The position numbers were made by a program, and so were the translations under genes. Shown here in pieces: positions 2,994 through 43,442 of a stretch of 58,055 nucleotides of DNA. The stretch is taken from sequence record SRR31156797_4070; one strand, given 5' to 3'. How positions within the stretch are numbered: the first letter of the stretch is position 1; every line of letters begins with the position of its first letter. Under the pieces are notes generated by a model, which worked only from the letters and a program-made list of their open reading frames with translations, did not search any database and was not told where the DNA came from.

Positions 2994-3884
2994 TTATTTA
3001 ATAATATTCAGCAAATTCATTTCTTTCATTATACTCTGTAGATTGTCTTTATCCTCGCCATCCATATCTGTAAGAGGCATTCTGACGAACCCTGAATCAA
3101 ATCCCATTAGGTTAAGTGCACATTTTACAGGAATCGGATTGGTGCGCGCACCTAACTGTTTAATCAATTTATCCATTTCAAACTGAATATTTCTGGATTT
3201 GTCAATGTCTCCTGACTTATATGCCTTTACTAGTTTTTCACATTCTGCAGGCAGTACGTTGGAAACTACTGAAATCCAACCCTTACCTCCGCATGCTAAA
3301 AGTGGGAAGATTGTTCCGTCATCACCAGACATAATGTCTATATCACTGCCGCAGCAGCTTACCATATCCATTACCTGACGAATAGAGCCGCTTGCTTCCT
3401 TATGAGCTACTACATTTTTATGCTTTGCTATTTCGCAAAGAGTCTCAGGAAGCAGGTTAATACCAGTTCTGGATGGAACATTGTATGTTATTATAGGAAT
3501 ATCAACAGTATCTGCAACTGTTAGGAAATGTCTAATCAAGCCGTCCTGTGTAGGCTTATTGTAATATGGTGTTACTATTAGTACTGCATCAGCACCCATA
3601 TCCTTTGCTATTTTAGATGAATGTATAGTATGGTCTGTGCTGTAGCTGCCTGAACCAAATATGACAGGAACTCTGCCGTCTACTTTTCTTATTGTAATTT
3701 CCAGTAGTTTCTTCTTTTCGTCCTCAGTCATAGTTGCAGGCTCGCCTGTTGAACCCGCTGCCAATATTGCCGAAATGCCGCCTTCTAACTGGTATTCTAT
3801 ATGCTTTTCATACGCTTTATAGTTTACACCTTTCTCATCAAATGGCGTTACTATTGCTGTACAACAACCAGTAAATATGCTCAT
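2994..3884 (-). CDS. dapA: 4-hydroxy-tetrahydrodipicolinate synthase
   Basis: GSTGE, TPYYNKP, YNVPSRTG, Schiff-base KEAS; next to dapB. Confidence 0.96.
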   Translation of the reverse strand: MSIFTGCCTAIVTPFDEKGVNYKAYEKHIEYQLEGGISAILAAGSTGEPATMTEDEKKKLLEITIRKVDGRVPVIFGSGSYSTDHTIHSSKIAKDMGADAVLIVTPYYNKPTQDGLIRHFLTVADTVDIPIITYNVPSRTGINLLPETLCEIAKHKNVVAHKEASGSIRQVMDMVSCCGSDIDIMSGDDGTIFPLLACGGKGWISVVSNVLPAECEKLVKAYKSGDIDKSRNIQFEMDKLIKQLGARTNPIPVKCALNLMGFDSGFVRMPLTDMDGEDKDNLQSIMKEMNLLNIIK

Positions 3885-39451: not shown

Positions 39452-40861
39452 ATGAGAAAACATAAAAAAAGCACTATTATGCTATTCATGATTCTTACTG
39501 TGTTTACAGTAATTCTAACTGGATGTTCAAAAGATTCCGATACAACAATTACAGACTTAAGTAATGATGATATTATTGATTTTGAAATAAGTGCACGTTT
39601 TAGTCCTGATACTGCAGCAAGTGCTTGTCATGATTTTAAATATTGGATAACTTCATTCAGTATATACTGGGATCACCCTGATATTAAAGAGATAGAAGTT
39701 AAATATAATAACGGGGAGCATACATTTGATTCCTTTGCCCATACAATACCAACTGAATTTTCTGATGTGCTATTTGATATTACTGTAATAGCATACGGAA
39801 CAGATGGTAAAATAATTTCACAAAAGAAAATAGAAGATATCTATATTTCAAGGAATAAAAGCATATCAGAAATACCGAATAGTTCCAAATATGTTGTTGT
39901 CGTTAGGAACATAAGTAATTTTGACTTGAGAAGAATTTGCTGGAATAAAAATTTAACTGGGTTATATCTACTAAACGATTATAATTCACTGGATAATATT
40001 AACAGTATTAAGAAACTTAAAAAACTAAAGAAACTTTATATTGAAAGCAAAGAAGGGCTTGATGATATCAGTGTATTAGCGTCCCTTTCCAGTTTGGAGA
40101 TGTTAGATTTAAGTGACTGCGAATACATAACAGATTTGGATGCTCTAGAAAGTCTAGTACAGCTTAAGTCTCTTAATATGCACGGTTGTACATTTCTTAC
40201 ATTTATTAACGGTATTAAAAATCTGTATAACTTACGAAAACTGGATTTATCTGATTGTGAATATCTTTTGGATATAAGTGATTTATCTGAACTTTCTAAC
40301 CTTCAGAGCTTAAATCTAAGCAGTTGCAAAAATATTGACGATATTAATGCACTAGCTGGTATAGATTCTCTAAAGGAACTTGACATTAGTAATATACCAA
40401 CGTTGAGTGGACTAGGAAAAATAACTCAATTACAGAGCTTAACAGCAAGAGGAAATATTGACTTAATGGCTATATGTCAGATATCACAGCTCAAAAGGCT
40501 AGAGTACTTGGATTTAACATACAATCATACTATTTCTGGTGTAGATTTTTTGTCTAAGCTAACTAGTTTGGAAGAATTACATTTAGTTGATTGTAATAAC
40601 CTTACAAACATTAACGGGCTAACAGGTTTGACAAATCTTCAAGAATTGAATTTATGCTTCTGTAGAGAAATTACAGATATTAGTGCACTATCAAACCTTA
40701 CAAACCTGAGTAAATTGGTTTTAGACTATTGTGAGAGTATTACTGATGTTAGTGCACTATCAAACCTTACAAATCTTGAGTACTTATGGTTATATGGATG
40801 TACCAGTATTGATGATTATTCACCACTTGATGATTTAGAAAATACCAAAATAAGTAAATAG
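39452..40861 (+). CDS. Leucine-rich-repeat lipoprotein
   Basis: Lipobox LTGC; multiple LxxLxxLxLxxCxxIxDIxxL repeats of about 23 aa. Confidence 0.88.
   Translation: MRKHKKSTIMLFMILTVFTVILTGCSKDSDTTITDLSNDDIIDFEISARFSPDTAASACHDFKYWITSFSIYWDHPDIKEIEVKYNNGEHTFDSFAHTIPTEFSDVLFDITVIAYGTDGKIISQKKIEDIYISRNKSISEIPNSSKYVVVVRNISNFDLRRICWNKNLTGLYLLNDYNSLDNINSIKKLKKLKKLYIESKEGLDDISVLASLSSLEMLDLSDCEYITDLDALESLVQLKSLNMHGCTFLTFINGIKNLYNLRKLDLSDCEYLLDISDLSELSNLQSLNLSSCKNIDDINALAGIDSLKELDISNIPTLSGLGKITQLQSLTARGNIDLMAICQISQLKRLEYLDLTYNHTISGVDFLSKLTSLEELHLVDCNNLTNINGLTGLTNLQELNLCFCREITDISALSNLTNLSKLVLDYCESITDVSALSNLTNLEYLWLYGCTSIDDYSPLDDLENTKISK
40682..40773 (+). repeat. Direct DNA repeat between adjacent LRR units
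   Basis: AGTGCACTATCAAACCTTACAAA at 40682 and 40751 (69-nt period). Confidence 0.85.
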
Positions 40862-41062: not shown

Positions 41063-42004
41063 TTAGAACATTTTTCGTCTTGCCAGCCAGATAATTGCTG
41101 CGACAGTTATTGCCAGAGCAATACCCATTACCATTAAAAATCCAAACGAATTGTTTTCCCAAGGGACATTTACATTCATTCCCCATGCACTGGTAACCAA
41201 GGTTGGCAGTGATATTACTATTGTTACTGCAGCCAAGAATTTCATAACGATACTTAGATTGTTAGAAATAATTGATGCATATGCGTCCATCATACCTGAC
41301 AAAATATCACGGTAAATCGAACACATCTCAATTGCCTGCTTGTTCTCAACAATGACGTCTTCTAAGAGTTCTTCGTCATCATGATACTTTTTAATGTAGT
41401 TGACTTTTACTAGTTTTTCTAAAACTATCTCGTTCCCTTTTAGCGATGTTGTAAAGTATACCAAGGATTTTTCCAGAGCCATCATCTGAAACAGCTCCTT
41501 GTTCCTGTAGCTTCGCTGCATTTCCTCGTTTAGCCTTTCGCTTGCCTTATCTATCTGACGCAGGTAGCGCAGGTAACGTGTTGAATTCCTGTACAAGAGC
41601 AGCAGAATAAACTGTGTTCTCTTGTAGGTATAGAATTTTTTGACTCGGGACTTAACAAAGTCCTCCAGCAGTGATGATTGGATAAGGCATACAGTTATTA
41701 TATAGTCTCCTACACACAAGATGCCAAGCGGCAGTGTAGTGTAGACATATGTATCATTGCCTTCTTTCTCCACTCGAGGAATATCCACGACTATAATAGT
41801 CTGTTCGATTTCTTCCTCGTACTCAATTCTGGAGCGTTCCTCTTCGTCCAGAGCGGCTCGCAGCAGTTCTTCATCAGCTCCTGTTTTCTGACAGACTAAA
41901 TTAATCTCCTCATCTGTCGGAGCAACTAATGAAATCCATGATCCGTTCTCAAAATCGTCTAAGAGGGAAAAACGTGAATTAATATGCTTATAGATATTTA
42001 CCAT
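41063..42004 (-). CDS. corA: CorA-family Mg2+/Co2+ transporter
   Basis: WGMN signature, SIISNNLSIVMK, two C-terminal TMs. Confidence 0.93.
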   Translation of the reverse strand: MVNIYKHINSRFSLLDDFENGSWISLVAPTDEEINLVCQKTGADEELLRAALDEEERSRIEYEEEIEQTIIVVDIPRVEKEGNDTYVYTTLPLGILCVGDYIITVCLIQSSLLEDFVKSRVKKFYTYKRTQFILLLLYRNSTRYLRYLRQIDKASERLNEEMQRSYRNKELFQMMALEKSLVYFTTSLKGNEIVLEKLVKVNYIKKYHDDEELLEDVIVENKQAIEMCSIYRDILSGMMDAYASIISNNLSIVMKFLAAVTIVISLPTLVTSAWGMNVNVPWENNSFGFLMVMGIALAITVAAIIWLARRKMF

Positions 42005-42076
42005 AGCATCCCTCCTTTGCCCGTAGTAATGCTTTTAGGCAAAGTCGCTATGATAATCTAAAATGTTCTAAAAAGA

Positions 42077-42160
42077 TTATGACAGGCGTACATCGCATAA
42101 CGCACATCTTTGGGCGTATTTTGTTGTTTTGAAGTTTCTACTTCCAGGGTCTGCGTCCAC
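42077..42160 (-). CDS. Putative corA leader peptide MDADPGSRNFKTTKYAQRCALCDVRLS (27 aa)
   Basis: GGAGG RBS 8 nt before GTG at 42160; TAA at 42077; lies between promoter and corA; overlaps alternative pairing elements. Confidence 0.65.
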   Translation of the reverse strand: MDADPGSRNFKTTKYAQRCALCDVRLS

Positions 42161-42219
42161 GACATTTACCTCCATATTATTTGGCGTTTATTACACACCA
42201 TACATAATTTCCTAAAATA

Positions 42220-42248
42220 ATTATATACCTAAAAAATAATAATTACAA
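42220..42248 (-). promoter_or_regulatory. Sigma-A promoter of leader-corA transcript
   Basis: TTGTAA-17nt-TATAAT. Confidence 0.65.
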
Positions 42249-42479
42249 GAATAAATTTCAAAGAATTACGTGAATTTAATATGTATTATTATAATAGTTA
42301 TCTCCTGCTAATATCTGCATTTTACTATATGAATTTCATAGTGTATTTGACACTTATTATGTGTTAGTTTTATGATAATAAAAATATTTGTAATAATTGA
42401 AGTAATATTTGCATCTTAATACATCTAAATATATGAACGCAATTGCTAATGAATAATTCTTTATAAAGAAAGGGCAGCG

Positions 42480-43052
42480 ATGGTAGATAAGAACAGCCTA
42501 AAAACTACCCTAGACAAACTAGGCTTATTGAGCTTTGAAGATTTGGTAACCCAATATCAGCACAGTGTCTATTCCACTGCATATTCCTTTACAGGAAATT
42601 CAAGCGATGCAGAGGATCTGGCACAGGAGATATTTTGGCTGATTTACAAAAATCTGCATAAGTTCAACTTCGAATCCAAACTGTCTACATGGATTTATAG
42701 GATTACAGTAAACAAATGTCTGTCATACCGCAGAGATATTGCCAGACGAAAAAGTATTGCAGAGTTTGTTACTATTGATAATTCTGAAACAATTAATCTT
42801 AAGGATGAATCAAATGTTGAAAAATGTGTTATTGATAATGAAAATGATGTTCTACTGCGTAGGGCGATACATAGCATGGGCAGCAACTATTCTGTTCTTA
42901 TTATTCTTAAGTACTATGAAAGCCTTGCAAACAAGGAGATTGCAAAAATCCTAGGGCTTCCTTTAAGGACAGTTGAGACTAGAATCTATCGAGCGAAAAA
43001 GAAACTAAAGAAAAAGCTAGTAGAAACGAACTACAGATGGGAGGTAAAATAA
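42480..43052 (+). CDS. ECF RNA polymerase sigma factor (SigW/SigE-like)
   Basis: DAEDLAQE, SKLSTWIYRITVN, region 4 EIAKILGLPLRTVETRIYRAK. Confidence 0.92.
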   Translation: MVDKNSLKTTLDKLGLLSFEDLVTQYQHSVYSTAYSFTGNSSDAEDLAQEIFWLIYKNLHKFNFESKLSTWIYRITVNKCLSYRRDIARRKSIAEFVTIDNSETINLKDESNVEKCVIDNENDVLLRRAIHSMGSNYSVLIILKYYESLANKEIAKILGLPLRTVETRIYRAKKKLKKKLVETNYRWEVK

Positions 43053-43442
43053 ATGAATATTGATGAAAAGATATTTGAAAGAGCAAGCTTAAAAGCTCCT
43101 GATGATTTTGTGTCCAAGACTATGAGATATATTAATGAGCAGGAAGCTGTTCTTCAGCAAAAAAGTGTAAAAAATAATCAGAATGCTTTCTATACTGCGT
43201 ATAATAAGCTGGGAAAAGCTATGGTTACAGCAGCTATACTTATGGTTATTTTTAATATCCTTCCATATTTACCTTTCATAAGCGTATCATACGATAAAAT
43301 AAATATCCCCAGTGTGCCGTCATTCATTGAAATAGATAAAGATTATACTTCCTTTAATTTCAAAATAGATAAATTGAATATAAGCGAATTAGTTGGTACT
43401 TTCAGAAATAAATTCAGCAATACTTTTAATCAAGGAGAATAA
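43053..43442 (+). CDS. Putative anti-sigma factor (single TM)
   Basis: Directly after ECF sigma, APDDFVSKTM motif, one TM. Confidence 0.65.
   Translation: MNIDEKIFERASLKAPDDFVSKTMRYINEQEAVLQQKSVKNNQNAFYTAYNKLGKAMVTAAILMVIFNILPYLPFISVSYDKINIPSVPSFIEIDKDYTSFNFKIDKLNISELVGTFRNKFSNTFNQGE

Follow-up and report, generated by a model that had tools for sequence, protein, structure and literature searches.

The subject of this work is the leader of a corA gene on the minus strand of a 58,055-nt stretch of DNA from sequence record SRR31156797_4070, referred to here as the window. We found that an unannotated short open reading frame (ORF) with an acidic, proline-containing N-terminus occurs upstream of corA far beyond chance, and sequence comparison indicates that this putative leader is conserved across several orders of Clostridia. 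In the window, folding predicts that the leader RNA can form three mutually exclusive helices, and that the position of a ribosome sets the choice among them. We consider it somewhat probable that the element is an attenuator similar to MgtL, the mgtA leader peptide of Salmonella and Escherichia coli, which would act on corA translation with the ribosome as the sensor and low Mg2+ as the condition. A preliminary description of the window, made from the sequence alone, had proposed such a device, and its interpretation is partly supported by the analyses below.

Conservation and coding signature of the leader ORF

The comparison covered corA loci of diverse Clostridia, with L001-L080 coming from species-representative genomes and L081-L160 from metagenome contigs. 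Among the matches listed, the best CorA identity to the window was 63-64% in genome contigs and 56% in metagenome contigs, and most values were 48-56%. The conservation pattern was fixed beforehand from the window's own motif and consisted of an ORF beginning M-[DE]-x(0-2)-D-P, on the sense strand and at most 400 nt upstream of corA. This short ORF was detected in 43 of the 160 listed loci, eight of which (L087-L092, L108, and L130) carried copies of one leader. The preliminary description had proposed to look in relatives for an ORF with a ribosome-binding site (RBS), a start codon and D-x-D-P, and this arrangement was indeed found upstream of corA in distant Clostridia. The 43 matches lay in 61 kb of target DNA, whereas the remaining 1.73 Mb of locus DNA, both strands counted, gave 14, an 87-fold excess in density. 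About 0.49 loci were expected at the background rate, and 0.11 when a Shine-Dalgarno sequence (SD) was also required. When the upstream regions were shuffled 200 times, the pattern appeared in a mean of 0.57 loci, with a maximum of 3. An SD-like word preceded the start in 42 of the 43 leader ORFs, as compared with 3 of the 14 background matches, and each of the 43 loci kept the frame open over 15 codons or more. Within the 58 kb of the window, the motif DTGGANNNNGAYCC occurred once, at the leader, where 0.22 occurrences were expected and 21 of 100 shuffles contained at least one match.

The position of the motif was also analyzed at the genome scale. Five whole genomes searched for the motif plus an SD gave seven matches, five of them corA leaders and the other two sites within long ORFs. 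A stricter pattern was matched in 4 of 401 sampled genomes of the class; two of these matches were corA leaders with M-box riboswitches, one was the N-terminus of a CNNM/CorC protein, and one was inside a gene. The reversed control pattern had no match in any of the 401 sampled genomes.

A nucleotide hidden Markov model (HMM) running from the SD to codon 9, and blind to the amino-acid pattern, retrieved 27 additional loci at E<=10, 10 of these at E<=0.12. Each had an ATG or GTG at the expected column, and all except the weakest had an SD and an ORF of at least 19 amino acids. Their N-termini included MEGDSGSS, MDGDSGS, MDCDAGNSS, MDTGPKQ, MEGEPQSR, MDSGPEHS, and MDTSPGSS, while a looser residue filter gave MEAGPDPR (Blautia and Oliverpabstia loci), MDEVPT, MDEGPS, and MEPNPEPR. 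On a CorA tree of 160 rows, 44 had the strict leader (the window included), 42 a variant and 74 none, this last class containing some rows with too little upstream DNA to judge. The window CorA was sister to that of L001 (64% CorA identity) with a support of 100, and belonged to a supported set of 51 rows with 33 strict leaders, 8 variants and 10 without a leader. The strict-leader label needed 8 changes on this tree versus 26 for shuffled labels (0 of 500 as few), indicating that the leader was inherited within a CorA clade and kept amid the divergence of its surroundings.

The coding signature was read from a codon table of those leaders, 36 with the window counted, that were distinct and kept the exact M-x-x-D-P register. 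The start codon was ATG in 20, GTG in 15, and TTG in 1. Residue 2 was Asp encoded by GAC in 17 leaders and by GAT in 12, and Glu in the other 7; Asp4 was encoded by GAC (32) or GAT (4), and Pro5 by CCT (24), CCG (7), CCA (4), or CCC (1). Because the pattern itself had selected positions 2, 4, and 5, the evidence from them is confined to their wobble variation. Two features stood outside the selection pattern: a small residue 3, where 14 different codons were used, yet 34 of the 36 leaders encoded Gly, Ala, Ser, Cys, or Thr, and Ser7, present in 24 of the 36. Insertions and deletions came as whole codons, as in MDDP of L081 and DPAGNS of L003. Collectively, this signature suggests that the leader ORF is translated.

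Regulatory membrane peptides of Mg2+ transporters exist in enterobacteria, where MgtR and MgtS are small proteins of this kind. It is nonetheless highly improbable that the window ORF likewise encodes a small protein of independent function, or that it arose by chance and has no part in corA control: the peptides are unrelated past residue 8 and range from 15 to 37 amino acids, their position upstream of corA is fixed, and the 3' part of the ORF doubles as strand B of the RNA switch described below.

Alternative helices over the corA start

The minimum-free-energy fold of the free window leader (-56.0 kcal/mol) contained two helices, built from four strands named A to D (Table 1). Helix A:B joined 42176-42139 with 42118-42078 by 30 pairs and buried the leader's own SD and start, and helix C:D joined 42060-42032 with 42026-41991 by 25 pairs and buried the SD and AUG of corA. 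When the RNA was masked from the leader SD to 14 nt past codon 4 or 5, the optimum was a third helix, B:C (-41.2 kcal/mol), in which 42115-42112 paired with 42022-42019 and 42105-42074 with 42059-42029, and the corA SD was unpaired. Constrained folding with a ribosome mask over B or at the stop codon restored C:D. The sub-fold energies were -26.2 kcal/mol for A..B, -28.3 kcal/mol for B..C, and -18.8 kcal/mol for C..D. Upon dinucleotide-preserving shuffling of strand B, the z-score was -2.9 for A..B (4 of 500 shuffles as good) and -3.5 for B..C (1 of 500), and no shuffle in 500 was as good with both partners. Shuffling the 5' arm of C:D gave a z-score of -4.3 (0 of 500 as good), and the 86-nt stretch of the sequestering hairpin had a z-score of -3.1. 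No U-run followed the C:D hairpin, and no terminator-like site was detected between the leader and corA on the minus strand.

These folds allowed us to revise the RNA model of the preliminary description. It had closed the corA start by pairing CAUAGC (42052-42047) with GCUAUG (42007-42002) and CUUUGCC (42044-42038) with GGCAAAG (42021-42015); these pairs are present, score -13.8 kcal/mol, and the hairpin that sequesters the corA SD and AUG is found in the minimum-free-energy fold. The competing pairs that it drew, CAAAG (42112-42108) with CUUUG and CGUUAUG (42102-42096) with CAUAGCG, also exist, but are weak (-4.7 kcal/mol) and are not the operative register, which joins 42115-42074 with 42059-42019 at -28.3 kcal/mol. 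Helix A:B, which hides the leader's own SD, was absent from that model, and its addition makes the device an attenuator of the 1:2/2:3/3:4 type. The proposed direction of control agreed with the constrained folds, in which early stalling corresponded to the on state and full translation to the off state. The naked RNA left by simple ribosome drop-off, however, was predicted to fold to the off state. Translational coupling, with a terminating leader ribosome opening the corA hairpin, was considered and rejected for the window: the hairpin base is some 20 nt downstream of the leader stop codon (42079-42077), and C:D stayed intact with a ribosome mask placed on this stop.

The switch was then compared with that of relatives. 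L001, the nearest among the matches listed, has a 15-codon leader that is unalignable with that of the window past codon 8. Its helices reached -32.1 for A:B, -22.3 for B:C, which contains an 11-bp AAGGGUAAGCC/GGCUUGCCCUU pairing, and -18.2 for C:D, and they flipped under masking like those of the window. With automatic strand boundaries, a hairpin over the corA SD/AUG was found in 34 of 37 leaders, and z-scores below -1.64 were obtained among those 34 for C:D in 19, for B:C in 16, and for A:B in 16, where about 2 were expected. In a subgroup of nine members, the A:B and C:D helices were 91% paired versus 42-51% with the partner slid, and their covariation score was matched by 7 of 500 shuffles; B:C was 80% paired versus 38-61%, and four of its pairs were changed on both sides. 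A 30-nt mask was also slid along each of the 37 leaders and the SD accessibility was scored. Masking of the 5' region raised the accessibility of the corA SD from 0.34 to 0.62 in the window, and raised it in some relatives, e.g., L013, L025, L026, L031, L032, L061, and L079. In line with the test proposed in the preliminary description, SD-sequestering and competing helices recur in relatives of unrelated sequence, and the support for a shared architecture with differing sequence is real, but not uniform.

A subgroup of four members showed an SD-covering hairpin followed by a U-run. In the last 60 nt before corA, L006, L019, L021, L097, and L112 had an SD-covering hairpin and then 4-7 U right before the start codon, so that in these loci the same helix could be both an intrinsic terminator and an SD sequester.

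The Rfam scan that the preliminary description had suggested gave no match: no family, the M-box (RF00380) included, reached its gathering score across the whole 58 kb window, and at E<=10 over 41900-42520 there were just two chance-level matches, neither of them an M-box. This agrees with the earlier statement that the window has no M-box.

The features of the locus are listed in Table 1, and the positions given earlier, among them those of the 27-codon GTG ORF on the minus strand, were all confirmed. The site formerly called a sigma-A promoter has the TTGTAA-17-TATAAT sequence, and its assignment stands as a match to the consensus only. Of sequencing runs, one DNA run, probably that of the source sample, was listed as containing the stretch, and no RNA run was. 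The corA ATG is 72 nt past the leader stop codon. An in-frame ATG at 42175 was rejected as the leader start, as it overlaps the SD, is without an SD of its own, and relatives keep M-D-x-D-P right after the start. We delimit the family as leaders with an SD, an ATG, GTG, or TTG start, and an M-[DE]-x-D-P ORF of 15-37 codons located less than 200 nt 5' of corA, followed by an SD-covering hairpin, and the window leader belongs to it.

Table 1. Features of the corA leader region, in positions of the whole window
Feature	Position	Strand	Basis
Promoter-like site, TTGTAA-17-TATAAT (-35, 17-nt spacer, -10)	42220..42248	-	Consensus match only, 10/12
Leader SD, GGAGG, 8 nt 5' of GTG	42169..42173	-	Sequence
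Leader ORF, GTG start, 27 codons, stop UAA, MDADPGSRNFKTTKYAQRCALCDVRLS	42077..42160	-	ORF list and sequence; homologous ORFs in relatives
Conserved N-terminal codons M-D-A-D-P-G-S, proposed ribosome-destabilising or stalling motif	42140..42160	-	Codon table, 36 leaders
Strand A: SD, start and initial codons of the leader; 5' strand of A:B	42139..42176	-	Minimum-free-energy fold of free leader
Strand B: 3' part of leader ORF; partner A (42118-42078) or C (42115-42074)	42073..42118	-	Constrained and sub-range folds
Strand C: partner B (anti-sequester) or D (sequester)	42029..42060	-	Constrained and sub-range folds
Strand D: corA SD GGAGGG (42015-42010) and AUG (42004-42002); 3' strand of sequestering hairpin	41991..42026	-	Folding
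corA, 313 aa, GMN motif (WGMNVNVPW), regulated gene	41063..42004	-	Pfam CorA, E 6.2e-51

Around these features, at 42480-43442 (plus strand), a gene for an extracytoplasmic function (ECF)-type sigma factor (Sigma70_r2, r4_2) is divergent from corA, and it is followed by a 129-amino-acid ORF without a Pfam match, possibly its anti-sigma factor. A 475-bp AT-rich gap separates the sigma factor gene from corA, and the corA leader shares this gap. On the opposite strand downstream of corA, 39452-40861 (+) encodes a 469-amino-acid leucine-rich-repeat protein (LRR_4, 5e-40) with a lipoprotein-like N-terminus.

M-box riboswitches upstream of the leader

The usual explanation for magnesium control in Firmicutes is the M-box riboswitch. 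This element was found on the corA strand in 12 of the 38 strict-leader loci scanned: five of 20 in one set (L004, L005, L023, L032, and L036), five of 16 in another (L040, L041, L054, L086, and L111), where none of four variant loci had it, and two of two in a third (L168 and L169). Over strict and variant leader loci together, it stood 69-268 nt upstream of the leader start and scored 123-155 bits, with 68 bits for a copy cut by a contig end. Variant leaders behind an M-box were found at L024, L063, and L100 (3 of 18 scanned), and at L039 (1 of 20 loci without the strict pattern), where MDCDAGNSS stands behind the M-box terminator. The total was 16 loci with an M-box upstream of the leader, 12 strict and 4 variant.

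The order at L040 was a promoter-like site, the M-box, a terminator-like hairpin with a T-run, the leader ORF, the SD hairpin, and corA, and no promoter-like site was detected between the M-box and the leader. This arrangement suggests that the leader module is a separate stage downstream of the Mg2+ sensor on the same messenger RNA (mRNA). The leaders of the window and of L001 occur without an M-box, which makes the leader the only visible control there. An M-box directly upstream in relatives ties the module to Mg2+. Together with the identity of the regulated gene, corA, and the likeness of the motif to the EPDP of MgtL, these stacked M-boxes point to Mg2+ as the candidate signal.

Other genes and RNAs were also observed in the loci. 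At L170:239-1570 (+), a protein of the CNNM/CorC type (Pfam CNNM 1e-27, CBS, CorC_HlyC) begins at a GTG with M-D-A-D-P-L-S behind a GGAGG, and this places the motif of the corA leader at the N-terminus of a putative Mg2+ exporter. The N-termini of 27 other Clostridial CNNM loci were often acidic, which may merely reflect membrane topology, so no conclusion was drawn on the motif as a mark of other Mg2+ genes. A NiCo riboswitch at L160:2714-2814 (+) (RF02683, 38.7 bits against a cut-off of 37) immediately precedes a CorA-family gene that starts at 3001, with a weak leader-like ORF, VDDDQSS, between them; the riboswitch hints that this CorA paralogue handles Ni/Co. Two Christensenellaceae loci have a raiA RNA (RF03072) some 300 nt upstream of corA, encoded on the opposite strand (L031:2495-2703 (-), 196 bits; L030:2493-2700 (-), 163 bits).

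Proposed mechanism and related systems

The mechanism we favor would operate as follows in this Clostridia-type bacterium. Ribosomes would load on the leader co-transcriptionally, ahead of the synthesis of strand B. Smooth elongation through Asp-x-Asp-Pro would let the ribosome run over B, so that C:D forms and the corA RBS is closed. Stalling or destabilisation at codons 2-5 would instead keep the ribosome on A while B and C emerge, B:C would form, D would stay single-stranded, and corA would be translated. Low cytoplasmic Mg2+ would make the acidic, proline-containing N-terminus hard to translate, and the cell would then produce the channel during Mg2+ shortage. The selection of B:C would come from stalling, or from kinetic trapping after drop-off, and not from equilibrium folding.

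Published work on enterobacteria, available to us in part for each source cited here, offers precedents for these steps. The EPDP that follows the initiator Met of MgtL is described to abort translation within six residues, more so at low Mg2+, which turns mgtA on (bioRxiv 10.1101/2021.02.02.429294; PMC11282234). According to the accessible text of PMC11282234, early acidic residues that are adjacent or one apart pause or dissociate ribosomes with the help of Pro; the D-A-D-P of the window fits its description of acidic residues separated by one residue, plus Pro. D-x-D-P may slow or destabilise the ribosome. The available sections of PMC11552253 report that a stem covers the SD of the upstream ORF (uORF) in the mgtA and corA leaders of E. 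coli, for which reason co-transcriptional loading of ribosomes is expected, and that transporter expression runs opposite to uORF translation.

Several observations weigh against this mechanism. Left naked, the RNA has its thermodynamic optimum in the off state, so simple drop-off would leave corA off unless kinetic trapping took place. D-A-D-P-G-S has three D/E/P residues in six, while the E. coli screen used four in six. Relatives exist with Gly, Val, or Ser at position 4 or with Ala, Ser, or Thr at position 5, and a purely acidic/proline mechanism would be weakened by these variants. The covariation support is modest and comes from nine related sequences, where the B:C score was matched by 36 of 500 shuffles. 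For the helices of the window itself, the nearest listed corA locus, at 63-64% protein identity and with a leader unalignable past codon 8, is too distant to give covariation support. Masking of the 5' region was without effect in L003, L019, L021, L033, L055, L081, and L086. At loci with an M-box as Mg2+ sensor, the leader might respond to a different signal. Finally, some of the conservation may operate through the RNA itself, since the Ser7 codon is invariably AGT, never TCN or AGC, and the Asp-Pro codons of the nine-member subgroup contain a GACCC that pairs with GGGU in strand B.

This last point leads to an RNA-only switch, in which GGAGG...RTGGA...GACCC would be a structural strand or a site for a ligand, a protein or a small RNA, the reading frame would be incidental, and Mg2+ or another factor would directly shift the equilibrium among A:B, B:C, and C:D. 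Besides the AGT codon and the GACCC pairing, the fact that all three helices are better than shuffles would suit this explanation. We regard it as quite improbable, because the wobble positions vary while the amino acids stay, ATG, GTG, and TTG interchange at a fixed distance from the SD, indels are of whole codons in a frame that remains open in every one of the 43 loci, no Rfam family matches in the window, and the core of the window A:B helix does not use GACCC.

A second alternative keeps the translated leader and the switch, and replaces Mg2+ by another signal, such as the supply of prolyl- or aspartyl-transfer RNA, the activity of elongation factor P (EF-P) or of an ABC-F protein, polyamines, or overall translation capacity. 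In carriers that have an M-box, the switch would then contribute another signal alongside it. The 16 carriers that already have an M-box for Mg2+ are consistent with this, as stacked regulators often read different signals. So are the roles reported in the enterobacterial system, in which the acidic and proline residues of mgtL are important to mgtA control (work cited in the part of PMC11552253 available) and EttA modulates MgtL translation (PMC11282234, likewise in part). However, the leader has one Pro and two Asp codons only, with no regulatory codon run as in amino-acid attenuators, the short-ORF form of the motif was found only at corA in the five genomes, the regulated gene is a Mg2+ channel, and the leaders of the window and of L001 are the sole visible control at loci without an M-box. 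We think that a signal other than Mg2+ is unlikely.

The MgtL-like mechanism can be compared with systems already described. As with the MgtL/mgtA leader, a Mg2+ importer gene has a short ORF in its 5' leader, a motif with acidic and Pro residues directly after the initiator Met, which in the window has three D/E/P residues in six against the four of the E. coli screen, and a set of mutually exclusive helices of which one hides the SD of the uORF; efficient uORF translation corresponds to off and poor translation to on, which in the window is suggested by the folding. These likenesses are to MgtL/mgtA as given in the portions of the sources available. The window element differs in having no sequence or Rfam relationship with it, in belonging to Clostridia and to corA, not mgtA, in its motif (D-x-D-P versus E-P-D-P), in the stacking of one third of the strict-leader carriers scanned behind an M-box, and in its output, which is sequestration of the SD and AUG, with a terminator-like hairpin in some relatives, versus Rho-dependent termination. 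The enterobacterial corL/corA motif (Stav et al. 2019) also has a uORF upstream of corA, translated inversely to corA expression, and two alternative folds (PMC11552253, accessible text). In the available text of PMC6429828, that motif is reported only from Gammaproteobacteria, and according to PMC11552253, in the sections at hand, CorL is poor in acidic and Pro residues and works by way of Rho. The window element matches no Rfam model, and Rfam may not include the corA motif.

The M-box (ykoK, RF00380) controls Mg2+ transporter genes in Firmicutes and stands upstream of the same corA genes in relatives. It differs from the leader ORF, which is a separate module downstream of it, in sensing Mg2+ by RNA folding and acting through its own terminator, and it is absent from the window. 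Attenuators of the trp/his type (1:2/2:3/3:4) share the four strands, the three mutually exclusive helices, the decision by ribosome position, and the off state of the untranslated RNA. In contrast with them, the window has no regulatory codon run, its 3:4 helix closes the RBS and has no U-run, and its strand 1 includes the leader's own SD. The pe20 leader of Mycobacterium tuberculosis has translated uORFs behind an M-box and in front of a Mg2+-stress operon, but in that system uORF translation and Rho termination are gated directly by the M-box, the conservation of uORF2 extends over the whole protein, which has a homologue elsewhere in the genome, and the available text of PMC12810186, the source for all these statements, describes no acidic/Pro N-terminal uORF motif. 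No description of a corA leader peptide in Firmicutes was found in full-text literature searches, although the supplementary tables of Stav et al. 2019 (PMC6429828), with Clostridium uORF candidates, could hold one.

A broader claim, to which we give a slightly less than even chance, is that Mg2+ sensing through ribosome instability is an independently evolved and widespread Gram-positive device that gates the initiation of CorA translation, stacked in about one third of its carriers behind an M-box. To our knowledge, ribosome-based Mg2+ sensing, as by MgtL, has been demonstrated only in E. coli and Salmonella. If true, the finding would extend the principle of the ribosome as a sensor to another phylum and to another output, SD sequestration. 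The natural variants D-x-D-P, D-x-G-P, and D-x-D-A/S/T would serve to dissect the Mg2+ sensitivity of the nascent N-terminus. Loci with an M-box would offer a naturally occurring example of serial sensing on a single mRNA, by an RNA sensor and a ribosome sensor, a two-tier control in which RNA-sensed transcription is followed by ribosome-sensed translation of the same Mg2+ channel. The carriers of this conserved leader include many gut species of Clostridia, and the leader marks a class of short ORFs that genome annotation has overlooked.

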